Assembly: GCF_055900595.2 (NCBI RefSeq)
Contig: NZ_CM148325.1
Length of the DNA stretch: 64,000 nt
Strand: one strand, 5' to 3'
The notes beneath the pieces were generated by a model. That model worked only from the letters and a program-made list of their open reading frames with translations. It ran no database searches and was not told the origin of the DNA. Positions 5,179 to 44,826 of this stretch are shown one piece after another. The position numbers and the translations under genes were made by a program. The stretch's first letter is position 1. Each line of letters begins with the position of its first letter.

Positions 5179-6576
<1,398 letters not shown>

Positions 6577-6619
6577 TTATTCAGTCGATAGTAACCCGCC
6601 CTCCGGGGATAGCAAGCAT

Positions 6620-6670
6620 TTTTTGCAAAAAGGGGTAGATGCAATCGGTTACGCTCTGTATAATGCCGCG
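6620..6670 (+). promoter_or_regulatory. Putative guaBA promoter region (-10-like TATAAT at 6659-6664)
   Basis: TATAAT hexamer about 44 bp upstream of the conserved guaB start, within the xseA-guaB divergent intergenic region; -35 not confidently assigned. Confidence 0.35.
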
Positions 6671-6707
6671 GCAATATTTATTAACCACTCTGGTCGAGAT
6701 ATTGCCC

Positions 6708-8174
6708 ATGCTACGTATCGCTAAAGAAGCTCTGACGTTTGACGACGTTCTCCTCGTTCCTGCACATTCTACCGTTCTGCCGAATACCGCTGACCTCAGC
6801 ACCCAGCTGACAAAAACTATTCGTCTGAATATCCCTATGCTCTCCGCAGCAATGGATACCGTAACGGAAGCGCGCCTGGCTATCGCCCTGGCTCAGGAAG
6901 GCGGTATCGGCTTTATCCACAAAAACATGTCCATTGAACGCCAGGCTGAAGAAGTTCGCCGCGTGAAAAAACACGAATCTGGCGTGGTAACCGATCCGCA
7001 GACTGTTCTGCCAACCACGACGCTGCGCGAAGTGAAAGAGCTGACCGAGCGTAACGGTTTTGCAGGCTATCCGGTTGTGACCGAAGAAAACGAACTGGTC
7101 GGCATTATCACCGGTCGTGACGTGCGTTTTGTTACCGATCTGAACCAGCCGGTTAGCGTTTACATGACGCCGAAAGAGCGTCTGGTAACCGTGCGTGAAG
7201 GCGAAGCCCGTGAAGTGGTGCTGGCAAAAATGCACGAAAAACGCGTTGAAAAAGCGCTGGTGGTTGATGATGAATTCCACCTGATCGGCATGATCACTGT
7301 GAAGGACTTCCAGAAAGCGGAACGTAAACCGAACGCCTGTAAAGACGAACAAGGCCGTCTGCGTGTAGGTGCAGCGGTTGGCGCAGGTGCGGGTAACGAA
7401 GAGCGTGTTGATGCGCTGGTTGCCGCAGGCGTTGACGTTCTGCTGATCGACTCCTCTCACGGTCACTCTGAAGGCGTTCTGCAGCGTATCCGTGAAACTC
7501 GCGCTAAATATCCTGACCTGCAAATCATCGGCGGCAACGTGGCAACAGCTGCAGGTGCCCGCGCGCTGGCAGAAGCCGGTTGCAGTGCCGTTAAAGTGGG
7601 TATCGGCCCAGGTTCTATTTGTACTACCCGCATTGTTACTGGCGTCGGTGTACCGCAGATCACTGCCGTTGCTGACGCAGTAGAAGCCCTGGAAGGCACC
7701 GGGATTCCGGTTATCGCTGACGGTGGTATTCGTTTCTCTGGCGATATCGCGAAAGCTATCGCTGCTGGTGCAAGCGCGGTGATGGTAGGCTCCATGCTGG
7801 CAGGTACGGAAGAATCCCCGGGTGAAATCGAACTCTACCAGGGCCGTTCTTACAAGTCTTACCGTGGGATGGGCTCTCTGGGCGCGATGTCCAAAGGTTC
7901 TTCTGACCGTTACTTCCAGAGCGACAACGCTGCCGACAAACTGGTGCCGGAAGGTATCGAAGGTCGCGTAGCCTATAAAGGTCGCCTGAAAGAGATCATT
8001 CACCAGCAGATGGGCGGCCTGCGCTCCTGTATGGGCCTGACCGGCTGTGGTACTATCGACGAACTGCGTACTAAAGCGGAGTTTGTACGTATCAGCGGTG
8101 CGGGCATTCAGGAAAGCCACGTTCACGACGTGACCATTACTAAAGAGTCCCCGAACTACCGTCTGGGCTCCTGA
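6708..8174 (+). CDS. guaB: IMP dehydrogenase
   Basis: Conserved N-terminus [25 protein letters not shown] begins at the in-frame ATG at 6708 (ORF track extends to 6639); CBS and IMPDH catalytic regions present ([11 protein letters not shown]). Confidence 0.95.
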
Positions 8175-8181
8175 TTCTCTT

Positions 8182-8202
8182 CGCCCGACTTCATGTCGGG
8201 CG
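8182..8202 (+). other. Stem-loop in the guaB-guaA intergenic region
   Basis: Inverted repeat cgcccgac-ttcat-gtcgggcg followed by an AT-rich run; possible intra-operon attenuator or processing site. Confidence 0.3.
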
Positions 8203-8242
8203 ATTTATATTATCTGTTTCACTTGCCTCGGAATAAGCGTCA

Positions 8243-9820
8243 ATGACGGAAAACATTCATAAGCATCGCATCCTCATTCTGGACTTCGGTTCTCAGTACA
8301 CCCAACTGGTTGCGCGCCGCGTGCGTGAACTGGGTGTTTACTGCGAACTGTGGGCGTGGGATGTGACAGAAGCACAAATTCGTGACTTCAATCCAAGCGG
8401 CATTATTCTTTCCGGCGGCCCGGAAAGCACCACCGAAGAAAACAGCCCGCGTGCGCCGCAGTATGTCTTTGAAGCAGGCGTACCGGTATTCGGCGTTTGC
8501 TATGGTATGCAGACCATGGCAATGCAGTTGGGTGGTCATGTTGAAGCCTCTAACGAACGTGAATTTGGCTATGCGCAGGTTGAAGTCGTAAACGACAGCG
8601 CACTGGTTCGCGGTATCGAAGATGCGCTGACAGCAGACGGTAAACCTCTGCTCGATGTCTGGATGAGCCATGGCGATAAAGTTACCGCTATCCCGTCCGA
8701 CTTCATCACCGTAGCCAGCACCGAAAGCTGCCCGTTCGCCATCATGGCAAATGAAGAAAAACGCTTCTATGGCGTACAGTTCCACCCGGAAGTGACTCAT
8801 ACCCGCCAGGGGATGCGCATGCTGGAGCGTTTTGTGCGTGATATCTGCCAGTGTGAAGCCCTGTGGACGCCAGCGAAAATTATCGACGATGCAGTAGCCC
8901 GTATCCGCGAGCAGGTAGGCGACGATAAAGTGATCCTCGGCCTCTCTGGTGGCGTGGATTCCTCCGTGACTGCAATGCTGCTGCACCGCGCAATCGGCAA
9001 AAACCTGACTTGCGTATTCGTTGACAACGGCCTGCTGCGTCTCAACGAAGCAGAGCAGGTTCTGGATATGTTTGGCGATCACTTTGGTCTGAACATTGTT
9101 CACGTTCCGGCAGAAGATCGCTTCTTGTCAGCGCTGGCTGGTGAAAACGATCCGGAAGCAAAACGTAAAATCATCGGTCGCGTTTTCGTTGAAGTATTCG
9201 ATGAAGAAGCGCTGAAACTGGAAGATGTGAAGTGGCTGGCGCAGGGTACTATCTACCCTGATGTTATCGAATCTGCCGCGTCTGCAACCGGTAAAGCTCA
9301 CGTCATCAAATCTCACCATAACGTGGGCGGCCTGCCGAAAGAGATGAAGATGGGCCTGGTTGAACCGCTGAAAGAGCTGTTCAAAGACGAAGTGCGTAAA
9401 ATTGGTCTGGAGCTGGGCCTGCCGTACGACATGCTGTACCGTCACCCGTTCCCGGGACCAGGCCTTGGCGTTCGTGTGCTGGGCGAAGTGAAGAAAGAGT
9501 ACTGCGACCTGCTGCGCCGTGCTGATGCCATCTTCATTGAAGAACTGCGTAAAGCGGACCTGTACGACAAAGTTAGCCAGGCGTTTACCGTGTTCCTGCC
9601 GGTACGTTCTGTTGGCGTAATGGGCGATGGTCGTAAATACGACTGGGTTGTGTCTCTGCGTGCCGTCGAAACCATCGACTTTATGACCGCACACTGGGCG
9701 CATCTGCCGTACGATTTCCTTGGTCGCGTTTCCAACCGCATTATCAATGAAGTGAACGGTATTTCCCGCGTGGTGTATGACATCAGCGGCAAGCCACCGG
9801 CGACTATTGAGTGGGAATGA
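8243..9820 (+). CDS. guaA: GMP synthase (glutamine-hydrolysing)
   Basis: 525-aa [43 protein letters not shown] ... PPATIEWE; class I glutamine amidotransferase plus ATP-pyrophosphatase regions. Confidence 0.95.
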
Positions 9821-9822
9821 TT
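9809..9822. repeat. attL core (direct repeat GAGTGGGAATGATT overlapping the guaA stop codon)
   Basis: Exact 14-bp copy also at 44813-44826; the left copy supplies the last guaA codons and TGA stop. Confidence 0.55.
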
Positions 9823-9938: not shown

Positions 9939-10026
9939 GCGGTAAATTTGACGGTATAAGAAATTTTTAGTCAGTGTTACACTCCATTTTACCGTCAGGT
10001 TTTAGCCAGCGGTGACGGTAAAATTT
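9939..10026. promoter_or_regulatory. Cluster of GACGGTA(A/T)A motifs: putative integrase arm-type binding sites
   Basis: gcggtaaa 9939-9946, gacggtata 9950-9958, inverted tttaccgtc 9988-9996, gacggtaaa 10014-10022, immediately upstream of int; the same motif occurs twice in the right arm (44730-44750). Confidence 0.4.
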
Positions 10027-10030
10027 CACA

Positions 10031-11245
10031 ATGGAGAGTGACCCGATGCTGACCGATACCAAACTGAAAAACCTCAAAGCGCGGGAAAAACTTTATAAAG
10101 TTGCAGACCGTGATGGGCTGTATGTAACCGTATCTCCCAAGGGATTGGTGACGTTTCGCTATGACTATCGAATCAATGGTCGTCGTGAAACGTTAACTAT
10201 TGGTCGCTATGGTGACGGTATTTCTCTGGCGCAGGCGCGCGAAAAATTAGTGGAAGCCAAAAAACGCGTAAATGCAGGAATATCGCCCGCTGGAGAGAAG
10301 CGTGACGGTAAAACAAAGCGAAAAGAAGAAAAGACACTCCACGATTTTACCGTCAGCTACATGAAACACACCCGGCTGGCGGACAGCACAAGGGCGATGA
10401 AGCAAAGCATTATCGACAGAGACATCACGCCAGTATGGGGGCGCAAGCTGCTGTCAGAGATAACCCCCTCTCTCCTACGTGAGTATTGCGACAAGATAAA
10501 AGCGCGTGGTGCGCCAGCGACGGCGATTCAGGTTCGCAATATCGTTAGTGCGGTATTTAAGTTCGCCGCGCTTCACGGCGACTATTACCCCAATCCTGCC
10601 GAAGAGGTTTTACCGGCTTCAATTGCGACATTCGAAGCGCGCGACAGGGCGCTCAAGCCAGAGGAGATAGGCTGGTTTTTCAATCAGCTTGAACAAACGG
10701 GTACATTACCCACCATCAAGCTGGCCATTAAATTGGTTTTATTAACGATGGTACGTAAAAGTGAACTGCTGAACGCTCCGTGGGGTGAGGTTAATTTTAA
10801 TGCCTGCCTTTGGACGATTGACGCCAGCCGGATGAAGGGATCACGGGATCATAATGTTTATCTGTCCCGGCAGGCACAGGACATTCTGATTGCCCTGAAA
10901 ATGTGCGCAGGAAGCAGTGATTGGGTTTTGCCTTCATGCAATCAGTCGTCGCATAAGACCATGTCGGCGGCGACCTTAAACCGGGTCATTAATCTTACGG
11001 TTAAGCAGGCGCAGGAACGGGGGATCAGGCTGGCGTCGTTTTCCGTTCACGATATGCGCCGAACGGCATCGACGTTATTGCATGAGGCGGGGTTTAATTC
11101 CGACTGGATAGAAAAATGCCTCGCGCACGAGGAAAGAAGCGTCAGAGCCGTTTATAACAAAGCGGAATACGCAGAGCAGCGCCGTGATATGTTGCAGCAG
11201 TGGGCGGATATGGTTGATGGGTGGATCAAGCAATACCGCCCGTAA
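10031..11245 (+). CDS. int: Tyrosine recombinase, P4-type phage integrase
   Basis: N-terminal arm-binding region DGLYVTVSPKGLVTFRYDYRINGRRETLTIGRYG and C-terminal catalytic HDMRRT ... AVYNKAEY (HxxR ... Y) typical of P4/CP4-57 integrases; true start may be the Met at about 10046. Confidence 0.9.
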   Translation: MESDPMLTDTKLKNLKAREKLYKVADRDGLYVTVSPKGLVTFRYDYRINGRRETLTIGRYGDGISLAQAREKLVEAKKRVNAGISPAGEKRDGKTKRKEEKTLHDFTVSYMKHTRLADSTRAMKQSIIDRDITPVWGRKLLSEITPSLLREYCDKIKARGAPATAIQVRNIVSAVFKFAALHGDYYPNPAEEVLPASIATFEARDRALKPEEIGWFFNQLEQTGTLPTIKLAIKLVLLTMVRKSELLNAPWGEVNFNACLWTIDASRMKGSRDHNVYLSRQAQDILIALKMCAGSSDWVLPSCNQSSHKTMSAATLNRVINLTVKQAQERGIRLASFSVHDMRRTASTLLHEAGFNSDWIEKCLAHEERSVRAVYNKAEYAEQRRDMLQQWADMVDGWIKQYRP

Positions 11246-11248
11246 GTA

Positions 11249-11503
11249 CTATGCGGGGATCTTGGTACCAGAGCGCTTTGGGACTTTGGCCAGATTTTTC
11301 TGTACCGCGTTATCAATATGGTGATGGTTATTTTCCTGCCGTGCTTTGAGCCAGCGTTCCACTTCCTCTTTGTCCCACGCGACGGCGCGCTTCGTTAGCG
11401 CAAAACGTTTGGGAAACAGGCCTTTTTGCTCCAACGCATAAATCGTACTTTCAGAGAGTGGCACCATCTGTAAAAGCACGTTTTTTCTAATGGCAATTTT
11501 CAT
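11249..11503 (-). CDS. alpA: AlpA/Vis-family excisionase-type transcriptional regulator
   Basis: Motif LSESTIYALEQKGLFPKRFALTKRAVAWDKEEVERWL matches the AlpA family; adjacent to int. Confidence 0.7.
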   Translation of the reverse strand: MKIAIRKNVLLQMVPLSESTIYALEQKGLFPKRFALTKRAVAWDKEEVERWLKARQENNHHHIDNAVQKNLAKVPKRSGTKIPA

Positions 11504-12314
11504 TGTTTATTCCTTTAATCCAAAGGCACTCAGTTCTGATAACAGATCCTTTTTTACCAGCAGCGGCAGATTGCTTTGTCTCTTTACGCCAGCCGGTTAG
11601 CAAATCGTTATACATTTCGGTGTCGTAGCCGCTGATAACCACGCTTCCTTGTAACCGGGTGACGGTCTCCAGTAAGCGCAGGTGGGCACCATCGTCCATT
11701 TCGTGGCGATAATATTTGTTAGTCAGATTACGGGTGCTATGAACATACGGCGGATCGACAAAATGCAGCGTGTCGGCGGCGTCATGATCCAGAATACACT
11801 GGATGGCATCGCGGTTTTCCACCAGAACCCCTTCAAAACGCTGACCAACGGCGGCCAGATTATCGGGCATACGGCTCCAGATGTGTTGGGCCGTTCCACT
11901 GGCGCGTTTAGTGTCCAGCCGAAAGCCGGTAGTGCCTTTAGTTGCCCCGGCAGAACCGAAGCCCATCGTGGCGCGAATCACTAAACGCCTTGCCTGTTCA
12001 ACAGAATTTTTCCCATAGCGATAGGCCGAAATAAACTCGGTGCGGGAATAGGGTGTCAGGCTGCAGGCTTCAACCAGTCTTTCGCGCAGTTGTGGGGTAC
12101 GAAGAACGGCGAACAGGTTAACGACGTCGCCATCCAGATCGTTGTAAACCTCGGCGTAGCTACGTGGTTTTCTGAGCAGTACGCTGGCTGCACCGCCGAA
12201 GGGTTCCACATAGCATCTGTGGGCCGGAAAGTGGCTAATGATCCACGGAGCTAGTCGCCACTTGCCGCCGTGGTAGCGGATTGCAGGGTGCTTAATCATC
12301 CAGTTTTTCTCCAC
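11487..12314 (-). CDS. DNA adenine (N6) methyltransferase, Dam family (copy 1)
   Basis: SAM-binding motif YVEPFGGAASVLL and catalytic DPPY (FVDPPYVHSTRN). Confidence 0.8.
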   Translation of the reverse strand: MEKNWMIKHPAIRYHGGKWRLAPWIISHFPAHRCYVEPFGGAASVLLRKPRSYAEVYNDLDGDVVNLFAVLRTPQLRERLVEACSLTPYSRTEFISAYRYGKNSVEQARRLVIRATMGFGSAGATKGTTGFRLDTKRASGTAQHIWSRMPDNLAAVGQRFEGVLVENRDAIQCILDHDAADTLHFVDPPYVHSTRNLTNKYYRHEMDDGAHLRLLETVTRLQGSVVISGYDTEMYNDLLTGWRKETKQSAAAGKKGSVIRTECLWIKGINNENCH

Positions 12315-12891
12315 GCCGTTCTACGTTCAGGTGTCGCCACTGCACCGCAATCCGTTTCATCACCGCATTCCCCTCTGGGATCACCTCCTGCGGCTCCTTC
12401 ATCAACATGACCCGCCCCCGAATAACGATCAGCGCTTGTTCCAGCAGGCCATAGTCCAGATAACAGAGATCGGGAATATCCAGTTGCCACACATAGCCAT
12501 TCCATGCTGAAAGTAGCACTTGCGCGGCGGCGCGTCCGCCGCTGGTTTCTGTGAGCGCGATTTTGGCAAGTGTATTGACGGCTGCGCCATATTCCTCTGG
12601 CGTGACGCGGAGTTTCTGCTGGCTGTTATCTTCTTTTGCCAGCGTTAATAATCCAATCGGGTGTAATACGCCCAGCTCTTCCATCTTTTCTTTCAATGTT
12701 GCAGCTGTATTCCATCCAATTCTGAATTTGCGCTGCAGGCGGCTGATACTGATAATGCCTTCCGCCTCGGCCAGTTCGACCGCTTTGGGATAGAGTTCAT
12801 TGAGCCGATATTCGTAATCAGCGAAGGGCGCACCGCTATTCTCTGGCAGGCCAGAGAGTGTTTGTGAATTATTTCCAGAGGATTTCATCAT
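12292..12891 (-). CDS. Hypothetical protein with FtsK-gamma-like winged helix
   Basis: Segment IISISRLQRKFRIGWNTAATLKEKMEELGVL resembles the FtsK gamma-domain consensus (S.S.lQR..rIGynRAarl.e.mE..G); remainder unrecognised. Confidence 0.45.
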   Translation of the reverse strand: MMKSSGNNSQTLSGLPENSGAPFADYEYRLNELYPKAVELAEAEGIISISRLQRKFRIGWNTAATLKEKMEELGVLHPIGLLTLAKEDNSQQKLRVTPEEYGAAVNTLAKIALTETSGGRAAAQVLLSAWNGYVWQLDIPDLCYLDYGLLEQALIVIRGRVMLMKEPQEVIPEGNAVMKRIAVQWRHLNVERRGEKLDD

Positions 12892-12901: not shown

Positions 12902-15559
12902 TTAACGTTGAAAAACCCAACACTTCACCGTCGCCGGGCGGCGCGGTGCGGCTGGGTAACGGCGGTTAAATTCAGCGTTGATGCCGCTGTTAACCGTTCT
13001 GACTTCAATAAACTTGTGGGTACGGCTGGTTTTTAGCACTCGCTTCAAATCGCTGATCGGCGGGATCTGCTGGCGGCGCTCGGTAGCCAGTTGAATAAAG
13101 TGGTTAAGGTTAACGGCGATAAGCTGTTCATCGCGCGAGTGGTTGAGCTGTGGTTCGTCGTCGCCATCGAGGAAGTCGAAAATATCCCAGAACTCCTGCA
13201 CCAGAGGATGGTCGGCGCTGATGGCCTGTTGGCGCTCCAGACTGAGGCGGATAAACATTTCTCTGGTCGCCTGTAGCTGCTCTTCCGTGACCGGAATAAC
13301 CAGCGCCAGCGCGTCGAGCAGCGCCATAAGCTGGGCGTGGTTTTTAATGATGCGGATATGGCGAATATCTGGGTGGGAGTGAAGTTGCTGCTCGTATAGC
13401 GGGATCTGACGGTTAACGCACTCCAGCACGGCCTGTTCCGCCAGCGCTGCCTTCAGCATAAAGCCGGAAAGCTGTTCTACCGGCAGGCGTTCGAGCTGCT
13501 CGGCAGCGACCTTGGTCTGAGTATTCTGGCCGCTGCGGTCGGTGTACAGGTGAATAATACGTTCCAGCACCGGGTTAGAGGCGCTAACATCGGCGTTTTG
13601 CGCAATCACAATCGCGCCCCGGAACGGCGGTTCATAGGTCTCGTTGCCGCTGTTACGCAGACCGCGAGAACGCACCGACCGCCCGTTATAGGCGGTTTTC
13701 AGCTCTTCCCAATCAAAGCCACGCTGCTTTGCCCCCTCCTGATTACGGTCACCCTCGATCAGCACCACCGGCATATTTGCTACCTGCGCAAAGTTGCGCG
13801 CGCGGGCGGCCAGCGTTGATTTAGACGGATCGAAACCTTCATAGTCGCGTCGGCCCAACAGTTTCCAGAGGAACTCTATCAGCGTGGTTTTACCGCTGCC
13901 GGGTTCGCCAACGATTTCCAGAAATGGAAAGCTCTTGTGCTTGTCGCGGATCTGTTCGGCAAACATCGTCCCAAACCAGTACGCCAGCGCCACAAACCCC
14001 TTTGCGCCAAACGCCTGCCAGAGTAGCTGGGGCCACTGGCTGTCCATCTGTTTTAAATTGTCGTTCAGCGTCAGGCTGACCGACTGGTTCAGGCTTTTAA
14101 GGCTAAGTTTGCCCATGTCGAAGAAGTCTTCTTCGTTGAGTGTGTACAGCCGACCATCGCGAACGGCCAGATCGTTGAACACGTAAGCGCGGTATTCTTT
14201 GCTGTAGCCGATAAAATCAGTGGTCTGGACAGTTTTGATTTTGGGAAGCTGCTTGAGCAGCAACTTATCTAACTGCTGACTGGTGCCGGTGAAGATGCCG
14301 CCCTGCGCGATATGCAGCAGGCGCTTTTTGAATTCTGAGCCGCTGGAAAGTTGGGAGCCGGTGAAGGTGTTTTTTATCGGTGGAGTGTCGTCGGGGAAGT
14401 TAATGCGAAAGTAATACCAGCTTTCGTCGGTAATGGTGTTGGCCTGATAGTAGAGGGCGGTCGGGTAGCAGTTGGCTATCTCAACAACGGCGGCTGACTC
14501 CTGTAGCGCTTTATGTTTGGCTTCTTCTTCGTCCAGCTCCTCTTTGCCGTTATACATCACGTTATCAAAGGCACGCATATAACGGTCAATATCCAGCTTG
14601 AACCAGTACAGGCGGCTGTCGAACTCGAAGTGAAACTCTTTGCGTTCGGTACGCTCATGCATCAGTAATGCTTTGGCATTCGGATTGGGAGCGATCAACA
14701 GTGAACCGTAGTAACGATATTTTTTAATCAGATCCGGGTTTAGCCGATCGCGCTGGTGCAAATCGTTCCAGTCCAGCTTGGTGCGGGAATAGGGCGTTTG
14801 TGCGGCGGTGGAAAGCCAGCCGTCGTCGCGGCTGCGTTTTACCCAGCGGCGGGTGTAATTCATGCCCGCTTTGTCGTTATCCAGCGCCCAGACCAGTAAA
14901 GGACGCTTTTTATCCACGAACAGCGCGGCCAGTTGGCTTAACGCCTGCGCCGGATAGTTGTTACAGGTCATCAGGGAAACGGCGGCAATGCCGTGGTGGT
15001 GCAGGGCGATAGCGTCAAAAATGCCCTCAACCAGCCAGATCTCCTGCTGTTCTTCCAGCTTAAGCGTTGGCAATTGCCACCATAGCCCGCTGTAAGCGCC
15101 GTGAAAATTGGCTTTGCGATCGCCGAAACGCTGTGGGCGGTCAACGATCCGCTCCCACCACACGCCGTCAGCCAGCGGGAAACGCACAGTGGCCGAGCCG
15201 AGATCGCGCCGTGCGTCATAGTAGTTCTCTTGAGCGTAACAGTTACGGAGCAGCGAAAGGTCAAAGCCGCGCATCTCGCGCAGGTAGGCATCGGCGGCGG
15301 CCTGTGGGTTTTCCGGGGTTGGGGGATATCTGTCTGACCAGCTTTCAAATAGATCCGGGTACACCTCTTTGATATGGATTTCGGCATTGCATTTATTCAG
15401 GCGACCGCAGCGCAGTACCCACGGGCTGATGGCGTAGGTGTACAGCTCTTTTTTCTGGCAGTCCGGGCAGACGCCCTGCCGCAGCCAGTCGCCCTGTTCT
15501 TTAAAGGAAAAATCGGCTAGCAGTCGCCGCGTAATTTCCTGATGAAGTTGTGGTTGCAT
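12902..15559 (-). CDS. Replicative primase-helicase (P4 alpha / HP1 Rep-like)
   Basis: N-terminal zinc-binding motif CPDCQKK ... CGRLNKC, TOPRIM-like EGIFDAIALHHHG and LDNDKAG (DxD), and Walker A GEPGSGKTTL. Confidence 0.75.
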   Translation of the reverse strand: MQPQLHQEITRRLLADFSFKEQGDWLRQGVCPDCQKKELYTYAISPWVLRCGRLNKCNAEIHIKEVYPDLFESWSDRYPPTPENPQAAADAYLREMRGFDLSLLRNCYAQENYYDARRDLGSATVRFPLADGVWWERIVDRPQRFGDRKANFHGAYSGLWWQLPTLKLEEQQEIWLVEGIFDAIALHHHGIAAVSLMTCNNYPAQALSQLAALFVDKKRPLLVWALDNDKAGMNYTRRWVKRSRDDGWLSTAAQTPYSRTKLDWNDLHQRDRLNPDLIKKYRYYGSLLIAPNPNAKALLMHERTERKEFHFEFDSRLYWFKLDIDRYMRAFDNVMYNGKEELDEEEAKHKALQESAAVVEIANCYPTALYYQANTITDESWYYFRINFPDDTPPIKNTFTGSQLSSGSEFKKRLLHIAQGGIFTGTSQQLDKLLLKQLPKIKTVQTTDFIGYSKEYRAYVFNDLAVRDGRLYTLNEEDFFDMGKLSLKSLNQSVSLTLNDNLKQMDSQWPQLLWQAFGAKGFVALAYWFGTMFAEQIRDKHKSFPFLEIVGEPGSGKTTLIEFLWKLLGRRDYEGFDPSKSTLAARARNFAQVANMPVVLIEGDRNQEGAKQRGFDWEELKTAYNGRSVRSRGLRNSGNETYEPPFRGAIVIAQNADVSASNPVLERIIHLYTDRSGQNTQTKVAAEQLERLPVEQLSGFMLKAALAEQAVLECVNRQIPLYEQQLHSHPDIRHIRIIKNHAQLMALLDALALVIPVTEEQLQATREMFIRLSLERQQAISADHPLVQEFWDIFDFLDGDDEPQLNHSRDEQLIAVNLNHFIQLATERRQQIPPISDLKRVLKTSRTHKFIEVRTVNSGINAEFNRRYPAAPRRPATVKCWVFQR

Positions 15560-15647: not shown

Positions 15648-15896
15648 TTACGCGATTTTCTGCTTTTGCAGAAATTGCCCGCGTGTGGATAGCGGTATGT
15701 GTATCTTAGGATTCGGGCAACCGCTGGGTACTACCGTTCCCATCACGGTCTCCATCGCGATAAATGAAAACGAACAGTTAACGTTCTTGCACTGGTAATA
15801 GAGCTTACGTACCAGCGGTGACATATATTCGCTGCTGCGAATTATCGCCTTACCGTCGCAGTGTGGGCATTTCATCATGTCCGATCTCCTTACCAC
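15648..15896 (-). CDS. ogr: Ogr/Delta-family zinc-finger late transcription activator
   Basis: CPHCDGKA ... YYQCKNVNCSFSF matches the Ogr/Delta C-x2-C ... C-x4-C zinc finger. Confidence 0.8.
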   Translation of the reverse strand: MVRRSDMMKCPHCDGKAIIRSSEYMSPLVRKLYYQCKNVNCSFSFIAMETVMGTVVPSGCPNPKIHIPLSTRGQFLQKQKIA

Positions 15897-16201
15897 TTTT
15901 AACTAACTGAAACACTAACGCTTTTCGTTAACGGACTGACGAAATAGTGTGATGCCGTTCAAAAAAATGATTCTTGCCATGCTGGACATCGAACGGTTCT
16001 GCTCCAGCGCTAATGCTTACAGTTCCGCGATTTCAGCGGGGAGCAGACGCATTGCCACCGGTTTGTTCGACATCACCCCGCGGGGTGCTCGTGAGCGTAA
16101 GACGTTCTCATTTGTTTTCATGGTGGTATATTGTGGTTATTAACATTACACAATCTATAATTCCCTCAATTGAGTGAATTGTCAATGGTAATTATATCCA
16201 A
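15897..16201. promoter_or_regulatory. Divergent switch region between ogr and the HTH repressor-like gene
   Basis: 305-bp non-coding region with AT-rich tract acaatctataattccctcaattgagtgaattgt (inverted ACAAT ... ATTGT ends) just upstream of the HTH gene. Confidence 0.4.
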
Positions 16202-16540
16202 ATGAAAGAATTTGGCATCCGTTTGAAGGAAGAACGTATCCGACTTGGCCTTGATCAAGACGGCTTTGGACAACTTGGGGGCGTGAAGAAAAACGCACAA
16301 AGTAACTATGAGAATGGACTGCGCAAGCCGGACAGTGACTATCTTGCTGGCATAGCGGCAGCGGGAGTTGATGTTCTGTATGTTCTAACAGGCAACCGCA
16401 CGCCTGTGGCTACGTTGTCCAGTAAAGAGAGTGTGTTGGTGGAGAACTATCGTTCTGCTACGCCAGAACACCAGTCCACCCTTGACACGGTTAGCGCTGC
16501 GCTTGCGCAACCGGGAGTAGGGAAAGCAGCTAAGGGATAA
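16202..16540 (+). CDS. HTH XRE/Cro-C1-type regulator, probable prophage immunity repressor
   Basis: N-terminal HTH FGIRLKEERIRLGLDQDGFGQLGGVKKNAQSNYENGLRKP; divergent from the early/late regulators; GC content like the phage backbone. Confidence 0.65.
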   Translation: MKEFGIRLKEERIRLGLDQDGFGQLGGVKKNAQSNYENGLRKPDSDYLAGIAAAGVDVLYVLTGNRTPVATLSSKESVLVENYRSATPEHQSTLDTVSAALAQPGVGKAAKG

Positions 16541-16580
16541 CGAGTAGAATGAATTTGGTTATTGTCTGTATGGAGGCAAA

Positions 16581-17153
16581 ATGAAGTTGAATAATCTGGT
16601 TGCTCTTTACAGGAACATGACAGAGCAAAAATTGGATAGGGTTAAATTCCCATACAGACACAATAATTTACATTTTGATGTATTTTTCTTTATTGATGGA
16701 AAACCGTTTGAGCTTCTTTTCGGAGCATTAGGCGCTAATCTTTGCTTTCGTCTAAAAGTCGAGAAGGGATTCGTCATAAATCCTAATCTGGGAAGTGAGA
16801 CTTATAAAGAATTATGCAAGGCGCTAGGTTTGAAATATGACCCTGCCAATCCATTTAGAACAAGTAAGTTTTTTGAAGATTTTGATGGGAAAATCCCTAC
16901 ATCGGTTACTGTTAAGAATAAGGCAAAATATACTGATATTGCTGTGCATGTCAGGGATGTTGAAGAAGCAGACAGAATATATTTCTGTGGATGGAAAAAC
17001 AACAATGAAGAAAAGAGTCATGTTACTGAAGATAATTTAAAGAAAACGAAAGAGTTTTTAGGGTATCAGGCTTTTCTTGTTTGTAAGGAAAAGAATATTA
17101 GCAGTAGATGGACTGATTTAGAAAATAAAGCAAAAGATTTTTATTTACCATAG
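16581..17153 (+). CDS. Hypothetical protein (cassette gene 1), no recognisable motif
   Basis: 190-aa ORF with RBS ggagg upstream, AT-rich codon usage, 40 bp downstream of the HTH gene. Confidence 0.5.
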   Translation: MKLNNLVALYRNMTEQKLDRVKFPYRHNNLHFDVFFFIDGKPFELLFGALGANLCFRLKVEKGFVINPNLGSETYKELCKALGLKYDPANPFRTSKFFEDFDGKIPTSVTVKNKAKYTDIAVHVRDVEEADRIYFCGWKNNNEEKSHVTEDNLKKTKEFLGYQAFLVCKEKNISSRWTDLENKAKDFYLP

Positions 17154-17167
17154 GATTGTGAGGTTAT

Positions 17168-18316
17168 ATGTCTGATATTTCATTAGGGTGCGTGGTTGTT
17201 CATAGGTTGATAAAAGAGCAACATAAAGATTTCGATCACTCAAAACCATATAGTCGCCGTGATACGGTTCTTGACCGAAATAATGAAATCGTAATTAAAC
17301 TAGTGTCCAGTATAGCCGCATTGTATGGTAAAAAATCTAATAGCTCGCATTATGGTATATTTAATTTAGATGAAACACGCAGGGGGCCTTTTCCAGCGGA
17401 ATTTGATAAATATCGGAATGATACATCCAAGAAGTTAGACGATGAATTGTTTATAGGATTATCAAAAAATGTTATGCATCAGTTATATATTGAGGCAAAG
17501 GATCGACCTGCTGCATCAGGAGGATTACTTCTTTTTGCTGATTATATCAGTAAATCCGTGCGTTACTTTCTTATTGCAATGATTAAGCAAAAGGAAGGTA
17601 TAGTTATTAGTGATAAATTAGAGCCAAAGGAGTTAGAGCATCTTGATCTGGCAAAACTAAACCAGGCGGCACGAATAAACTATGATTTGTATGATAAATA
17701 TATTTCCGCTGATGAGAATGAAAGACAGGATGTTAATTATTTAAGTTTTGTTAGTCCCAGTTCTAACCAGACAACTTCAGGGTATTTCATTACTGCCTTA
17801 GGTTGTGATAAAGGTAATACATCAACTAAAGCTACGAGTAATTTAATTAATGAATCTTTTAACTTCTTCAGAAATCATCAAGAATTAAAGGATAATGCCC
17901 GTAAATTTAAAAATGAAATTATTGAGTATTTATTCGATTGTTCTGAAAATAACATTTCAGCTAAGCTCTCTGTTGTTAGTGAGATGGCGGCGAAGCATAT
18001 GGTTAATTTAGAAGATGACATTAAAGATAAATTGTCAGAAGAATTATATGCTCATTTGAATAGTGAAAGTATTCGTGTGCCTGTGGAATTTAGGGTAAGC
18101 AAATCAGTAGTTAAGAAAAACAGAAATATTAAATATACAAGTGATAATGTTAATTTTGAGTTTAAATCTAGTTTACTAGGCAATACTCTTGATAATGAGA
18201 TATGCTATAATAAGAAAACTGGACATTTAACTTTTACTCGGATTACTCCTGAGAAAAAAAGTGAAATAGCTCAATTGCTTGATGAGTTAATAAAAGAAAG
18301 AAATAGCGAAAAATAA
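17168..18316 (+). CDS. NdpA/YejK-like nucleoid-associated-protein family member (cassette gene 2)
   Basis: N-terminal VVVHRLIKEQH and SGGLLLFADYISKSVRYFLIAMIK align by eye with YejK IALHQLIKRDE and [24 protein letters not shown] (sequence recalled from memory); further colinear similarity towards the C-terminus. Confidence 0.5.
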   Translation: MSDISLGCVVVHRLIKEQHKDFDHSKPYSRRDTVLDRNNEIVIKLVSSIAALYGKKSNSSHYGIFNLDETRRGPFPAEFDKYRNDTSKKLDDELFIGLSKNVMHQLYIEAKDRPAASGGLLLFADYISKSVRYFLIAMIKQKEGIVISDKLEPKELEHLDLAKLNQAARINYDLYDKYISADENERQDVNYLSFVSPSSNQTTSGYFITALGCDKGNTSTKATSNLINESFNFFRNHQELKDNARKFKNEIIEYLFDCSENNISAKLSVVSEMAAKHMVNLEDDIKDKLSEELYAHLNSESIRVPVEFRVSKSVVKKNRNIKYTSDNVNFEFKSSLLGNTLDNEICYNKKTGHLTFTRITPEKKSEIAQLLDELIKERNSEK

Positions 18317-18318
18317 GG

Positions 18319-18957
18319 TTGCTTAATATGTCATGTTTTGAAACGGTTGTTGAGCTTTTCAGATATGTAGGGCGTCCTAAATTTGATGCTATTAATAATC
18401 GTTTTTCAGCAACTATTTCTTATGATGCTCATATATATGAACTCTTAGTTTCTTTGCAACCTCATACAGCGTGGGGAGAAATTGAAGAGATTGTCATTGA
18501 TGATGTGGATATAGATGTTGATGATAGCCTTCCCGCTAAAGGAACATCAATAACACTGACAATCTCTATATCAACTGGAGCTAGTGAGTCATTTTTTATC
18601 GATATTAAAGATCTAATTCAAAAGTCTCCGATGTTAAATAGAGGTATTTTAAGAAAGTCTTTTTACTTGGTTGAGGAAGATTTTTATTTTAATGAAGGAA
18701 TGGTTGAGGGATTAGCAAAAATACCAGAACTATCTGTTTTAAAGAATCTTTGTGATTTTATTTTATGTCTATCAAAAGTTGCACACTACAGCAATAGTAA
18801 AAGTGATGATGTATGCCATAAGTTAGTTTTCTTGAAAAATACTAATGCTAAGTCATTACCTTTAATTATTGAAACTAATGTTGATTATTCACTTCTTTTA
18901 ACAGGTATTAAGGATTTAAAAATCATCGAATCTTTTTCTGATGAAAAAAAGCTATAA
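18319..18957 (+). CDS. Hypothetical protein (cassette gene 3)
   Basis: 212-aa ORF starting 2 bp after gene 2; acidic stretch IDDVDIDVDD; no recognisable motif. Confidence 0.5.
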   Translation: MLNMSCFETVVELFRYVGRPKFDAINNRFSATISYDAHIYELLVSLQPHTAWGEIEEIVIDDVDIDVDDSLPAKGTSITLTISISTGASESFFIDIKDLIQKSPMLNRGILRKSFYLVEEDFYFNEGMVEGLAKIPELSVLKNLCDFILCLSKVAHYSNSKSDDVCHKLVFLKNTNAKSLPLIIETNVDYSLLLTGIKDLKIIESFSDEKKL

Positions 18958-19001
18958 CGGATGATAATTATTTTGAGCGAAAAGGGATTTTCATTAATAC
19001 G

Positions 19002-19583
19002 GTGGTCGATTTTCTTGAATCAATCGATGTAAAGAAACAGTTTCATTTTTTATTCTGTGAGTGGGATGAATTTCTAAAACTATACCATAATAACCTCGGT
19101 GTATATCTTAGTGGTTTTTCATTTCATAAAGTAAGAAAGGAAGTGGCAGAGGCAGAAGCTAATTTAGCTGAGCGTTTTTCAAAAATAATGTCAGACATGA
19201 TAGCTAAGCTTTTAGGTATTCCTGTTTCTTTGGTTGCTACTTTTGGCATGATAAAATTAAATACCCTGCCGGAAATGTTAGTGGTTTTTTTAGGTGTATT
19301 GCTCACGTCGATAATTATGTTTTTTATTGTAAGAAGTCAATACACACAGTTTAGGATGATTTGTGATGCTAAAGATATTATATTTTCCCCATTAGTGAAA
19401 AAATCTGTAGGTTATACAGAAGATTTGAAAAAATTAGTATGCAATGCAAAGGATAATTTAGACAAAAATCAGGTCATGTTAAATCGTTACCTTCTTTTCT
19501 TTCAATGCTTATGCTGGATTCCGACAGCCTTAGGTGGTGGAATGATCTTAATGGCTATTATGGTTCATTTAGGATTACTATAA
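19002..19583 (+). CDS. Predicted membrane protein with two hydrophobic helices (cassette gene 4), putative effector
   Basis: Hydrophobic segments LLGIPVSLVATFGMI ... LVVFLGVLLTSIIMFFIV and LLFFQCLCWIPTALGGGMILMAIMVHLGL; 3' end overlaps the convergent gpD stop by 6 nt. Confidence 0.5.
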   Translation: MVDFLESIDVKKQFHFLFCEWDEFLKLYHNNLGVYLSGFSFHKVRKEVAEAEANLAERFSKIMSDMIAKLLGIPVSLVATFGMIKLNTLPEMLVVFLGVLLTSIIMFFIVRSQYTQFRMICDAKDIIFSPLVKKSVGYTEDLKKLVCNAKDNLDKNQVMLNRYLLFFQCLCWIPTALGGGMILMAIMVHLGLL

Positions 19584-24920: not shown

Positions 24921-26096
24921 TTACACAGTGGTGGCGATGGATTCAGCCAGATTGACCAGATAGCGGTCAGTGATGCGCTGGCGGAACATCAGGTTTTCCA
25001 GCGGCGGCACCGGGGTGTAGTCGTAGTCGATATACGCTTTACCCGCTTTCAGGATGTCCGGCGTGTTGGCGGCGGGATCGAACCATGCGGAGCCGTCGAC
25101 GATGTAGCCGTTGCCTTTCAGTTCGCGGAATTTGGCGTTCACGCCTTCGATAATGTCGCGGAACAGAGAAGCGTGTTGCGGTTTATCTATCGCCCAGAAG
25201 TGGGCGTCGGCGATGGTATCCGCCAGCACCTGCGCGGTGCGGGTGTAGTTCTCAAAGGCAAACAGCGGATCGGTGCTGCAGGTGCGCGATCCCCAGAAGC
25301 GATAGCCGGCGTTGCAAATCAGCGTGGTGACGTCGTGGCTGTTGAGGTAATCCGAATCGGTGGCGGTGGACTGCAGATCCCAGAATACGCTGCGGGAAAT
25401 GCCGGTCACGCCGTTGACGTCAACGTTGGACAGCGTTTTATGCCAGCCGGTTTCTTCATCAATTTTTGCACGCAGGCCCACGGCGCGGGCGGTGGCGTAT
25501 AGGGTACGTTCGGCGGCAGCCTGTGTATCAAAGCCGACAAAATCCGGCCAGATAATCATCGCCTCTCGCGCACCTAGCTGATCGCGATACAGCACCGCCT
25601 CTTCTTTGGTCTGCGCGCCGAACGCCGACAGATAGCTGAAGGCGCGAAGCTGTTGTGAAATGCTGACCAGTTCGGTGGCGATGGGCAGAGAATCCAGCCC
25701 TGGTACCGCCAGAATGCGCGGTTTTATTTTCAGTTTGGTTTGCGAGTCCAGTAGCGCCTTCATGCCGGTGTATTTCCCGGCTGGCGTGCTGCCGCCGATG
25801 ATATTGGCGGTGGTTTCGGCGGCGGAGTCACCTTCGGCTACGCGCACGGCGACCACCACCGGCTGCGTCTGGTCGGCGATGGCATCCAGAGAGTGTGCCA
25901 GCGTACCGCTATCACCGGCTTTACCCAGCGCAGATCGCACGTCGGTTAACAGTACTGGGGTATCAAGGGGAAAGGTTTTTTCATCGGCATCTGAACCGGT
26001 ACAGACAATGCCGATCACGGCAGTGGAAATGGTACGGATCGGGCGCACGCCTTCATTGATTTCAATAACGCGCGCGCCGTGGTGGTAGTCGGTTGC
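24921..26096 (-). CDS. FI: Tail sheath protein (P2 gpFI-like)
   Basis: Strong similarity to P2 FI as recalled (MATDYHHGARVIEINEG ... YIDYDYTPVPPLENL); start chosen at MATDYHH (ORF track extends to 26186). Confidence 0.85.
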   Translation of the reverse strand, partial: ATDYHHGARVIEINEGVRPIRTISTAVIGIVCTGSDADEKTFPLDTPVLLTDVRSALGKAGDSGTLAHSLDAIADQTQPVVVAVRVAEGDSAAETTANIIGGSTPAGKYTGMKALLDSQTKLKIKPRILAVPGLDSLPIATELVSISQQLRAFSYLSAFGAQTKEEAVLYRDQLGAREAMIIWPDFVGFDTQAAAERTLYATARAVGLRAKIDEETGWHKTLSNVDVNGVTGISRSVFWDLQSTATDSDYLNSHDVTTLICNAGYRFWGSRTCSTDPLFAFENYTRTAQVLADTIADAHFWAIDKPQHASLFRDIIEGVNAKFRELKGNGYIVDGSAWFDPAANTPDILKAGKAYIDYDYTPVPPLENLMFRQRITDRYLVNLAESIATTV

Positions 26097-26204
26097 CATG
26101 AGGCGAGCCTCCATCAGGTCAATAAATGACGATGGTGGCACAGAGCGAAAAGGGCGGTGACGGCTTCCACTTGTAACCACTGGCACTACAAGCAGAAGCG
26201 GTTT

Positions 26205-26963
26205 TTAATTCAGGATAATCAGTTCTGATGTGGTGCTGGCTGGCTTTCCACCTACGGTATAGCGAATCCCTACCGTTGAGAATGTCAGGCCGTGGAAGAT
26301 ATCGCGCATTTCCGGGATGTCGTTAACCGAGATAATCATCCGGCCCTGCATGGTGCGCGCCAGCTCTGCCATACGCTGGTACTGCTCAAGGCCAAATGGT
26401 ACGCCGTAGCCTTCGGTTTTCCAGTATGGTGGGTCGCAGTAGAACAGGGTATGCGGGCGGTCATAGCGGCGAATACAGTCGGCCCAGTCCAGATTTTCAA
26501 TGCAGACGCGCGCCAGCCGCAGATGGGCGGCGGATAAATCCTCTTCCATACGCAGCAGGTTCAGGCGCGGCGGTGAGGTGGTGGCGGTACCGAACGTGCG
26601 ACTTTCCACTTTGCCGCCGAATGCCAGCTTTTGCAGATAGTAGAAGCGCGCCGCGCGCTGGATATCGGTCAGCGTTTCTTCCGGGGTGATCTGGAGCCAG
26701 CGGTACATTTCGCGGCTGACCAGCGACCATTTAAACTGGCGGACAAACTCTTCTAAATGGTGCTGAAGTACGCGGTAGAGGTTGGTAACGTCACCGTTGA
26801 TATCGTTCAGCACCTCGGCCTGTGCGGGCTGTTTCATAAAGAACAACGCTGCCGCCCCGCAGAACGGTTCAACGTAGCAGCGGTGTTTGGGAAACAGTGG
26901 CAGAATGTGTTTTGCCAGCCTGCGCTTACCGCCGATCCACGGAATAACGGGTAACGTATTCAA
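26205..26963 (-). CDS. DNA adenine (N6) methyltransferase, Dam family (copy 2)
   Basis: YVEPFCGAAALFF and FYCDPPYW motifs; sits at the position of the P2 Z/fun accessory locus between tfa/G and FI. Confidence 0.8.
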   Translation of the reverse strand: MNTLPVIPWIGGKRRLAKHILPLFPKHRCYVEPFCGAAALFFMKQPAQAEVLNDINGDVTNLYRVLQHHLEEFVRQFKWSLVSREMYRWLQITPEETLTDIQRAARFYYLQKLAFGGKVESRTFGTATTSPPRLNLLRMEEDLSAAHLRLARVCIENLDWADCIRRYDRPHTLFYCDPPYWKTEGYGVPFGLEQYQRMAELARTMQGRMIISVNDIPEMRDIFHGLTFSTVGIRYTVGGKPASTTSELIILN

Positions 26964-27427
26964 ATTGTCAATTTTCCAGACCGACTGCTGACCAACGCAT
27001 ACAGCAGATTAGGAGACCAGCGCCAACTATCGCGCAGGTGCAGAAATTCGGCGCAGAACTCGCTGCAAAACAGGCGTTCCTGTTTACCCTGACTGAGTAA
27101 CACAAAACCCATGGCGCCCAGCCAGTCGTAACCTTTATCGTCGTGCTGACGAAAAAAGGTTTCCAGTGCCAGCGGATCGGCGTTGATCGGGAGTAAATCC
27201 CATTTCTCAATCGGCAGCGGCATTCGTTTGCTGCGCACGCCTTTATCCCGTACCGATGATGAGTAACAGATAAACAGGCCATCCGGCAGGCGTTCGACCA
27301 GTTCGCAGTGAGAGTAAGGGCCGCGCGTGACCTGTCGCGTCAACCAGTCGGAGAGCCGGGCAAGGCTGAAAAAGCGTTCAGCCCGGCCACGGTAGAACGC
27401 CATGTAAACCTGACTCATGGTTGCCAT
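26960..27427 (-). CDS. Hypothetical protein, possibly permuted-papain/NlpC-P60-like (His-Cys pairs); function unknown
   Basis: 155-aa ORF overlapping the Dam start by 4 nt; motifs SHCELVE and FCSEFCAEFLH; family assignment is only a guess. Confidence 0.35.
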   Translation of the reverse strand: MATMSQVYMAFYRGRAERFFSLARLSDWLTRQVTRGPYSHCELVERLPDGLFICYSSSVRDKGVRSKRMPLPIEKWDLLPINADPLALETFFRQHDDKGYDWLGAMGFVLLSQGKQERLFCSEFCAEFLHLRDSWRWSPNLLYALVSSRSGKLTI

Positions 27428-28122
27428 CCTGATGAGTAGTCGTAACCCATAACCGCCTGCACCTCCGTCAACGCTTCAACGGCGGCAATATGCTGCTGGG
27501 CAGCGGCGAACAGGCGCATATCGTGCGCCATTGTTTCGGTTTCAAACCGGGCGGCGATCTCGTTGGTTAGTTCAATCAGGTTGTGATTTTTGGTCTGCCA
27601 CATTAAGCCTGCCGGTATTTGTTTAGCCACGCCCATTTTGGTGAGCGAGAGCTGCTGGATGCGGCTGTTAGCGTCGCTGTGGAAATGGTGATTATCGATG
27701 ATGATGTAGTCAGCGGTGATTCGATCGCGATACTGCTTTATTTCTGCCACCTTTGCCTGTCGGGCTTTTTCGATATCGGGCTGCCAGCGTTTGCCGTCCC
27801 AACGGACAAAGGCGTTATCGGGCTTCAGCAGAGTGACGTTATCCGGCAATGGCCCCAGATGATGAAGCTGTACCTCACTGCCCGCATCGGTATCAAACGC
27901 GGTTTTACCGCGATGATCTTCTACCGCAAGCCATGTTTCTCCGTTGAATGTCAGGGCAAAGCCGCTCTGGCATTCGGGCGGTTCGATAGTGGTACAGCAT
28001 TCCGGTAAGCCGGTGTTGGGGGCGATATAGGCGTCGCTGACGCCGATAAATTCCTGAGTATCTGCCGCGTAGTTAAAGATGCGCAGGGTTTGCGGTTCGT
28101 CGGAAAATGCGAATGTGCTCAT
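27415..28122 (-). CDS. G: Tail fibre assembly protein (P2 gpG/Tfa-like)
   Basis: 235-aa ORF directly downstream of the tail fibre gene; composition typical of Tfa chaperones. Confidence 0.7.
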
Positions 28123-31295: not shown

Positions 31296-31642
31296 GGACG
31301 TCTCCTGTCGATTGGAATGGAGAATGTCCACGGCTGGCCGGGGATATCGGTACGTTCGGCTTCAATAGTGACGCTAAGATCGGCATTATCCGCAGCAAAG
31401 TCCACACCGATAATCTCGATGCGGGGTTCCCAGCGCGTCAGCGCCATGACCACTGCCGACATCACCCGTAGCCGGGTAGCGCCATCGTTGGGCTGGTCGA
31501 TCAGGTTGCCGATCAGTGAGCCATAATCGCGACGCATCACGCGCGTACCTACCGGCGTGGTCAAAATATCTTTTACGGATTGCTTAATGTGCAACTCGTC
31601 GCTTAACACTCTGCCGGTTTCAGCGTTCATACCGAGGTACAT
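31292..31642 (-). CDS. W: Baseplate protein W (gp25-like)
   Basis: 116-aa ORF in the P2 V-W-J-I order. Confidence 0.75.
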   Translation of the reverse strand: MYLGMNAETGRVLSDELHIKQSVKDILTTPVGTRVMRRDYGSLIGNLIDQPNDGATRLRVMSAVVMALTRWEPRIEIIGVDFAADNADLSVTIEAERTDIPGQPWTFSIPIDRRRP

Positions 31643-32241: not shown

Positions 32242-32312
32242 GCCGGAATCATTGGGATTCGCGGGCGAAGAGGGAAGGGCTAAGGCTTGTAGGATAATGG
32301 GCTACAAGTAAA

Positions 32313-32332
32313 ACGCCCCTGAGTAGGGGCGT
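32313..32332 (-). terminator. Weak hairpin downstream of hicB
   Basis: acgcccct-gagt-aggggcgt stem-loop 16 bp after the hicB stop; poor U-run. Confidence 0.3.
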
Positions 32333-32347
32333 TGAACGAAAAAGAGC

Positions 32348-32943: not shown

Positions 32944-32993
32944 ACAGGGTATTTTCCATAAGTTATTTTATTCTTCCGCCAAGATATAATGAT

Positions 32994-44812: not shown

Positions 44813-44826
44813 GAGTGGGAATGATT
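44813..44826. repeat. attR core (direct repeat GAGTGGGAATGATT)
   Basis: Exact copy of 9809-9822; followed by what looks like the displaced native guaA terminator. Confidence 0.55.

Follow-up and report, generated by a model that had tools for sequence, protein, structure and literature searches.

Two orphan D12-class adenine methyltransferase genes, one early and one late, in a single P2/phiCTX-like prophage at guaA

Our analysis of a 64,000-nucleotide stretch of DNA (hereafter, the window) identified a single P2/phiCTX-like prophage that carries two orphan methyltransferase genes of the D12 (alpha) class, one in an early operon (MT1) and one in a late operon (MT2). We judge it probable that the two genes were acquired separately and that both enzymes methylate phage DNA as a protection against restriction. 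This reading is built on the integrity of the genes, their family, position and operon coupling, the conservation of the pair and the purifying selection acting on it, from which we infer the timing of expression, the anti-restriction role and a difference in specificity.

The prophage is ~35 kb in size, spans 9.8–44.8 kb of the window and is inserted at the 3' end of guaA (Table 1). Its borders are marked by a 14-bp direct repeat (GAGTGGGAATGATT) present as one pair, of which the left copy covers the guaA stop; the pair encloses one integrase gene, with guaB and guaA to the left and yfgI, yfgH, yfgG, pdeF, ppx, ppk, purN and purM to the right; the host flanks are ~96.7% identical to E. coli. 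These borders bear out the preliminary description of this DNA, which had placed both methyltransferase genes in one prophage. Inside the repeats lie a complete P2-type late set (D, U, T, E, FII, FI, H, I, J, W, V, lysis, L, M, N, O, P, Q) and an early region. In the latter, a P4-type integrase is accompanied by AlpA, a toprim primase, an Ogr/Delta zinc finger and, in divergent orientation, an HTH repressor-like gene. By tblastn, this primase shares 48–58% identity with its counterparts in phiCTX, RSY1 and other phages of that kind, and is thus of a type that assigns the prophage to the phiCTX-like branch of the P2-like phages. An arrangement of a P4-like satellite (int, AlpA, primase) beside a P2-like helper was ruled out by the presence of one att repeat pair and one integrase, and is further countered by the guaA prophages of three E. 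coli genomes and of E. ictaluri, which have the same int-to-portal layout, and by the phiCTX/RSY1-type primase being native to this P2-like subgroup. We also rejected a third candidate methyltransferase, the ORF at 45473–45991 assigned to phrog_1277 ('DNA methyltransferase') in PHROGs, which Pfam identifies as a glycine-zipper lipoprotein and which by synteny is host YfgH.

Table 1 Features of the prophage and its borders, in window coordinates
Feature	Position	Strand	Basis
attL core GAGTGGGAATGATT	9809..9822	.	Overlaps final codons and stop of host guaA; longest exact repeat between prophage ends
Tyrosine integrase, P4-type, Arm-DNA-bind_3 N-terminus	10031..11245	+	phrog_1, E=3e-78; Pfam of identical gene, contig L011
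AlpA-family excisionase/regulator	11249..11503	-	phrog_66/2790; PF05930 on L011; start overlaps MT1 stop by 17 nt
MT1, D12-class N6-adenine DNA methyltransferase homologue	11487..12314	-	PF02086, 2.1e-19; phrog_56, 7e-68
FtsK-gamma-like winged helix fused to DUF7673	12292..12891	-	PF09397 and PF24720 on L011; phrog_6694/13700
Toprim primase/replication protein, phiCTX-RSY1 type	12902..15559	-	phrog_1139, 1262 bits; tblastn to phiCTX, RSY1
Ogr/Delta-like zinc-finger late activator	15648..15896	-	ORF with CPHC...CKNVNC; Ogr/Delta annotation in E. coli and E. ictaluri relatives
Sigma-70-like promoter matches	16157..16218	-	Consensus scan only, 10/12; face early operon, divergent from repressor-like gene
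HTH repressor-like gene, first of low-GC cargo island	16202..16540	+	phrog_8/4
Tail sheath (FI)	24921..26099	-	Start 26099 by homology with annotated 392-aa proteins
TGTA-N11-TACA palindrome TGTAACCACTGGCACTACA, candidate Ogr-type late promoter element (P_F equivalent)	26172..26190	.	Between MT2 and sheath gene
MT2, D12-class N6-adenine DNA methyltransferase homologue, 252 aa, TTG start	26205..26963	-	PF02086, 7.1e-29; phrog_56, 2e-97
orf155, 155 aa, function not assigned	26960..27427	-	phrog_1128, 1e-53; no Pfam match; overlaps MT2 start
Tail-fibre assembly-like protein (DUF4376)	27415..28122	-	phrog_1807/105; annotation in relatives
TGTA-N11-TACA site, candidate late promoter element of the operon ending in MT2	32288..32306	.	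Upstream of baseplate gene V (31642-32241)
attR core GAGTGGGAATGATT	44813..44826	.	Second repeat copy; E. coli homology resumes here

Both reading frames are present as first described, on the minus strand, and their translations contain the AdoMet-binding and DPPY motifs reported for them. In MT1, CYVEPFGGAASV (EPFGGAA, motif I) is followed by VDPPYV, and in MT2, CYVEPFCGAAAL (EPFCGAA, motif I) is followed by CDPPYW, such that motif I (FxGxG) lies N-terminal to the catalytic motif IV (DPPY) in both proteins, an order and a pair of motifs that are invariant in both family alignments. The PF02086 MethyltransfD12 match extends over residues 14–240 of MT1 (model positions 1–240 of 253) and residues 9–225 of MT2 (model positions 1–241 of 253). 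Together with the phrog_56 matches, these intact catalytic motifs uphold the original assignment of both genes to the N6-adenine methyltransferase class, as D12-class homologues. An AlphaFold model of MT1 (pLDDT 75) shows the Dam fold, its 26 top-ranking PDB matches being E. coli Dam, Mcbe1, DpnM and T4 Dam (TM ~0.6–0.77), with low model confidence exactly at residues 114–137; the structural model of MT2 (pLDDT 61) was too poor and was left out of the fold search.

MT1 is the penultimate gene of an early leftward operon with the order ogr, primase, DUF7673 protein, MT1, alpA. Translation from the GTG at 12314 gives a protein of 275 aa and from the ATG at 12299 one of 270 aa; we consider the ATG the more likely start, because public database entries and the E. 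ictaluri orthologue have the 270-aa form and GGAG precedes this ATG by ~10 nt. The stop of the DUF7673/FtsK-gamma gene overlaps this ATG, and no terminator-like site was found between the primase and MT1. Because MT1 (11487–12299) is translationally coupled into the early operon, its product is expected early, together with replication, upon derepression or on infection of a new cell.

The late tail operon runs V-W-J-I-H-G-orf155-MT2 and ends with MT2, whose protein has an identical annotated counterpart in E. coli; here too, no terminator-like site was found between the genes. The TTG start of MT2 overlaps the stop of the upstream 155-aa ORF, which itself overlaps the tail-fibre-assembly gene and encodes a protein 40% identical to gp51 of Haemophilus phage SuMu, located at the corresponding position. 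The palindrome TGTAACCACTGGCACTACA lies 15 bp past the MT2 stop, and TGTA-N11-TACA sites were found at four late-operon heads (26172, 32288, 35999 and 41134), of which three precede FI, V and the lysis/X block and one falls between O and P. A search with the classical P2 late-promoter element TGT-N12-ACA gave no match at the operon heads, while its N13 variant TGTA-N11-TACA fits all four; these sites may thus represent Ogr-type late promoter elements with one added spacer base, a pattern whose total count is no higher than chance. A consensus scan found no promoter-like site belonging to MT1 or MT2 itself. As the last gene of a putatively Ogr-dependent late operon, MT2 would be made during the packaging of progeny DNA.

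The two genes therefore lie in different modules, as had been proposed, MT1 in the early operon and MT2 between tail-fibre assembly and tail sheath. The latter position, between the G-like gene and FI, is equivalent to that of Z/fun in P2, and its content varies among related phages: it holds a 57-aa ORF and MT2 in E. ictaluri, and ExoZ with a hypothetical gene in a Halomonas phage. The description of both enzymes as orphans likewise held up, in that neither gene has a recognisable nuclease partner. MT1 is flanked by AlpA and the DUF7673/FtsK-gamma protein and MT2 by the phrog_1128 protein and the tail sheath; searches of PHROGs, NCBIfam, Pfam and PADLOC assigned no nuclease or defence family to these neighbours, and PADLOC gave no matches for the neighbouring cargo genes.

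We then compared the pair across related prophages. A prophage at guaA in E. ictaluri, present for example in the PacBio-sequenced genomes CP180729 and CP113159, contains both MT1 and MT2 in the same two slots, and purifying selection on the two genes is as strong as on essential phage genes: dN/dS between the window and E. ictaluri is 0.083 for MT1 (87% aa identity) and 0.070 for MT2 (94.8%), as against 0.079 for the tail sheath (93.9%) and 0.060 for the primase (92.1%). On the strength of these values, 0.07–0.08 and like those of sheath and primase, and of the two intact reading frames, neither MT1 nor MT2 is a pseudogene, an outcome that the preliminary description had raised for one of the copies. 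The prophage is present in 3 of 5426 complete E. coli genomes, those of L725, CEC15 and GMF054, all three of which retain MT2 and its upstream ORF and are without MT1. In these prophages, window bases 11509–12304 are absent, with an AAAC microhomology at the junction; MT1 is a clean single-gene presence/absence difference between prophages that are otherwise 95–97% identical. At the level of megablast, the MT1 gene was found in none of the complete E. coli genomes. As the three E. coli relatives do without it, MT1 is cargo that the phage can dispense with and that comes or goes as one gene, whereas MT2 is fixed in all relatives examined.

Next, we considered how the two enzymes are related. 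BLASTP aligns MT1 and MT2 with 32% identity over 233 aa (E=1e-29), and the identity falls from 50% in residues 1–72 to 22% in the target-recognition region, the C-terminal part reaching 25%; the pairwise alignment thus confirms the N-terminal likeness noted earlier. Profile-profile alignment of the two families gave a probability of 99.9 at 33% identity, with the recognition-hairpin segment aligned at very low confidence. MT1 is 90% identical to an E. ictaluri protein and 76% identical to its counterparts in two lambdoid-type phages, vB_YenM_29.18 of Yersinia and Meifeng of Hafnia. MT2 is 72–80% identical to proteins of BcepMu-like phages and of Pectobacterium, Chromobacterium and Nitrosomonas, and 65–67% identical to ORF48 of phage B3 (66%; located behind Com), VP882 Dam and phiE125 gp27. 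Since each enzyme has far closer relatives in unrelated phages, MT1 and MT2 are members of two old D12 subfamilies and were acquired separately. The term 'paralogous' that had been applied to them is accordingly not supported in the sense of a duplication inside this phage, as the two belong to distinct D12 subfamilies with much nearer kin elsewhere.

We next turned to target specificity, where the earlier label 'Dam-family' proved too strong. Against the NCBIfam Dam-family model TIGR00571 (cut-off 114.85 bits), MT1 and MT2 scored 64 and 105.6 bits, respectively, and against the E. coli Dam equivalog NF008152 (cut-off 441) they scored 36.9 and 62.3. E. coli Dam contacts GATC through K9, Y119, N120, L122, R124, P134 and Y138, with R124 foremost (PMC4417163). 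By hhalign, the residues found at these positions in MT2 are, in that order, P, F, G, K, E, T and A, and its recognition hairpin carries a 7-residue deletion relative to E. coli Dam; MT1 has R at K9 and a hairpin that cannot be aligned. Taken together, scores below the Dam cut-off and the loss of the GATC-reading residues mean that the specificity of MT1 and MT2 is not inferable from homology. GATC density provided no signal as a clue to specificity (4.03 per kb in the prophage and 4.04 per kb in the host flanks), and the papers citing phiE125 gp27 and VP882 Dam name no motif for these enzymes. Each family has a nearly invariant hairpin of its own, MGFGSAGATKGxTGFRLDTKR among MT1 relatives and AFGGKVxxxTFGTATTSPPRLNLLR among MT2 relatives, and because these hairpins differ, it is plausible, and to us the more likely case, that MT1 and MT2 act on different targets.

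In our preferred reading, MT1 and MT2 would methylate the phage DNA such that it escapes restriction in the current host and in the next, forming two layers that are apart in time and probably placed on different sequences. There is precedent for such a role, as phage orphan methylases at the mom position (Hia5 family) protect DNA from many restriction enzymes (PMC3299994). We put forward a more specific version tentatively, as one that has a reasonable chance of being correct yet falls short of an even one: MT1 and MT2 would be two uncharacterised D12 subfamilies in which all Dam base-reading residues are replaced, at least one of them having a non-GATC or relaxed target, and together they would provide an early and late anti-restriction coat of two specificities that is under selection from Edwardsiella to Escherichia.

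Several alternative explanations have to be weighed against this reading. Both enzymes might be GATC-specific Dam analogues that differ in timing only and supplement host Dam while the phage replicates rapidly in the lytic cycle, for instance to yield fully methylated phage DNA for packaging, to avoid mismatch repair or to escape MboI-type restriction. Both are annotated as 'DNA adenine methylase', both show full-length homology to E. coli Dam (hhalign probability 99.1 for MT2 and 96.5 for MT1), the closest solved structures (Dam, DpnM and T4 Dam) are all GATC enzymes, and MT2 relatives in B3 and VP882 are labelled Dam. However, the TIGR00571 scores of both proteins, the substitutions in MT2 (K9P, N120G, L122K, R124E, P134T and Y138A) with its hairpin deletion, and the unalignable hairpin of MT1 speak against such an assignment, and two enzymes of the same specificity under equal purifying selection across genera would be odd; we regard this possibility as rather unlikely. 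A lower probability still attaches to one or both being relaxed or non-specific adenine methyltransferases, comparable to Hia5/Hin1523 or M.EcoGII, that confer broad protection in the style of Mu Mom. The location of MT2 relatives at the mom or a Com-controlled position in B3 and BcepMu-like phages, the recurrence of the order tail-fibre assembly, phrog_1128 and methylase in the Mu-like SuMu, and the shortened counterpart of the Dam recognition hairpin in MT2 are all consistent with this proposal. Yet BLASTP against gp53, the methylase at the mom position of SuMu, which we used as a proxy for the Hia5 family, its membership being assumed from position, revealed no significant similarity for either protein (motif-level matches only; E=0.044 for MT1 and 0.008 for MT2), and we therefore dropped a link of either enzyme to that non-specific family. 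In addition, the MT2 relative B3 ORF48 is reported to fall outside the 1000 closest relatives of Hia5 (PMC3299994), and the strong conservation of the hairpin motif within each family fits a defined target better than none.

Orphan methyltransferases can also regulate genes, and in principle MT1 and MT2 could exert epigenetic control over host or prophage genes in the lysogen. In P2, Z/fun is a lysogen-expressed gene, and MT2 with orf155 occupies the slot that holds it. Nonetheless, both genes are translationally coupled in lytic operons, without a promoter-like site of their own, which renders host epigenetic regulation in the lysogen the less likely option, and prophage methyltransferases of E. 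coli ST131 were neither transcribed in the lysogen nor traceable through a motif (PMC4659465); we assign this alternative only a slim chance. The least credible option, with next to no probability in our estimate, is that MT1 and MT2 are recent paralogues that arose by duplication within the phage, or that one copy is a decaying pseudogene. While the identity over the N-terminal 72 residues would be in keeping with a common recent origin, the overall identity of 32% contrasts with the 72–90% reached by relatives elsewhere, and the intact frames, the retention of all motifs and the low dN/dS argue against decay.

Our preferred reading, two orphan D12 enzymes protecting phage DNA early and late, can be set beside several known systems. 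E. coli Dam, T4 Dam and DpnM are likewise orphan or phage-borne enzymes and share the Pfam family and the motif order (N-terminal GGK, FxGxG, DPPY) with MT1 and MT2, and the fold with the MT1 model, but are only 25–28% identical to them in profile alignment, and E. coli Dam differs further in K9 and the GATC readers of its hairpin, which are not kept. B3 ORF48 'Dam', VP882 Dam and phiE125 gp27 resemble MT2 over their full length and, like it, are encoded at the end of a late or structural module in a temperate phage; they differ in phage type, the MT2 phage being P2/phiCTX-like, and where the B3 methylase is preceded by the translational regulator Com, MT2 is instead coupled to the 155-aa ORF. 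The MT1-like genes of Yersinia phage vB_YenM_29.18 and Hafnia phage Meifeng are located, as in our prophage, at the integrase/excisionase end of the early operon, but on a different, lambdoid-type backbone.

With regard to the position of MT2, the Burkholderia P2-like phage KS5 carries a methylase (gp20) together with Com between FI and tail-fibre assembly, that is, in exactly the same slot, and KL3 encodes several methylases (gp28/gp47), and hence more than one in a single P2-like genome (PMC3091744). Unlike MT1 and MT2, KS5 gp20 and KL3 gp28 belong to PF01555 (beta-class N4/N6) rather than D12, and the second methylase of KL3 is of the C5-cytosine type and forms a pair with EcoRII-C. Further orphan m6A enzymes that are phage-borne, late and related to Dam are Hia5, Hin1523 and Nma1821 of Mu-like prophages, in which the recognition region is likewise divergent and which serve broad anti-restriction, and SuMu matches the MT2 locus in having tail-fibre assembly, a phrog_1128 protein and then a methylase; Hia5 itself is set apart by the report that B3 ORF48, the MT2 relative, is not close to it (PMC3299994).

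Orphan methyltransferases occur commonly in phages, and there are earlier descriptions both of temperate phages with several methylases and of methylases placed in the G-FI slot. A two-methylase prophage is therefore fairly ordinary phage self-protection cargo and changes no general picture. Slightly new are the retention of an early and late pair across genera, the natural MT1-plus and MT1-minus variants, and the two seemingly uncharacterised subfamilies, whose recognition hairpins do not resemble that of Dam. MT1 and MT2 represent large and strongly conserved D12 subfamilies whose specificity has seemingly never been assigned and is not transferable from Dam. The near-identical prophages with and without MT1, together with the cross-genus pair, constitute a natural experiment by which the contribution of a second methylase to host range could be gauged, and a D12 enzyme joins the list of cargo carried at the Z/fun-equivalent hotspot of P2-like phages.

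A low-GC island of the prophage, in which GC content falls to 36–38%, compared with ~55% elsewhere in the element, contains an HTH repressor-like gene and genes for a DUF6037 protein, an NdpA-like nucleoid-associated protein and a split 418-aa protein. The gene for the last of these is present in the window as two ORFs (18319-18957 and 19002-19583); E. coli GMF054 has this gene intact, and the two ORFs are 100% and 99% identical to it, respectively. PADLOC returned zero matches for the island genes. The same slot is occupied by a GTP pyrophosphokinase in E. coli L725, by WYL and DUF3644 in Edwardsiella ictaluri, and by an Eco29kI restriction-modification system in a Halomonas phage; it is probably a hotspot of defence or cargo genes. 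Two further stretches of the window, 32260-33068 and 36519-37634, do not align to the E. coli relatives, which at these points have an abortive-infection protein (L725) as well as toxin-antitoxin genes (Doc or RelE); both look like extra cargo-exchange points of the prophage family.

Further observations concern the genes adjoining the two adenine methyltransferases, MT1 in the early operon and MT2 in the late operon. For the 155-aa ORF coupled to MT2, the PHROGs match is phrog_1128; that family's label, 'enoyl-CoA hydratase/carnithine racemase-like', seems to have been inherited, and a Pfam search with this ORF gave zero matches. Its product is 40% identical to gp51 of the Haemophilus Mu-like phage SuMu, which likewise lies after tail-fibre assembly; in SuMu, com and an adenine methylase follow it. 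The E. ictaluri relative lacks the ORF. The YSHCE...FCSEFC pattern of its product may be a likeness to permuted papain-like hydrolases. Upstream of MT1, the counterparts of the 199-aa fusion in E. coli and E. ictaluri consist of the DUF7673 part only (123-125 aa), and bases 12608-12888 of the window are without a counterpart in these relatives. Separately, phrog_1277, labelled 'DNA methyltransferase', matches the ORF at 45473-45991. We rejected a third methylase at this position, as the ORF encodes the host glycine-zipper lipoprotein YfgH; the label is an annotation trap that could have pointed to such an enzyme.

Several repeated elements are candidate protein-binding sites. The classical P2 spacing, TGT-N12-ACA, was not found at the late-operon heads, and the TGTA-N11-TACA palindromes located there may represent this prophage lineage's variant of the element bound by the zinc-finger late activator Ogr. 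The AAAGGTAACC(T) copies are candidate iterons (replication origin) or candidate packaging/cos-associated binding sites, and the GACGGTAAA-like repeats are putative arm-type integrase binding sites.

Coordinates of prophage features in the window
Feature	Position	Context
Low-GC island	16202-19583	Between early promoter region and gene D (P2-type late gene)
FtsK-gamma-like winged helix + DUF7673 fusion, 199 aa	12292-12891	Upstream of MT1
155-aa ORF	26960-27427	Translationally coupled to MT2
TGTA-N11-TACA palindromes (n = 4)	26172-26190, 32288-32306, 35999-36017, 41134-41152	Late-operon heads
AAAGGTAACC(T), ~10 copies, both orientations	44291-44584	AT-rich stretch lying between portal gene and attR (right-hand att core)
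GACGGTAAA-like repeats	9940-10030 and 44740-44775	Close to both prophage ends; from sequence only

The host DNA on either side of the prophage (guaBA flank, 6408-9800; yfgI-ppx flank, 44826-49358) shows only ~96.7% identity to E. coli complete genomes, and the prophage itself is present in 3 of 5426 such genomes. This DNA may come from a divergent lineage of Escherichia.
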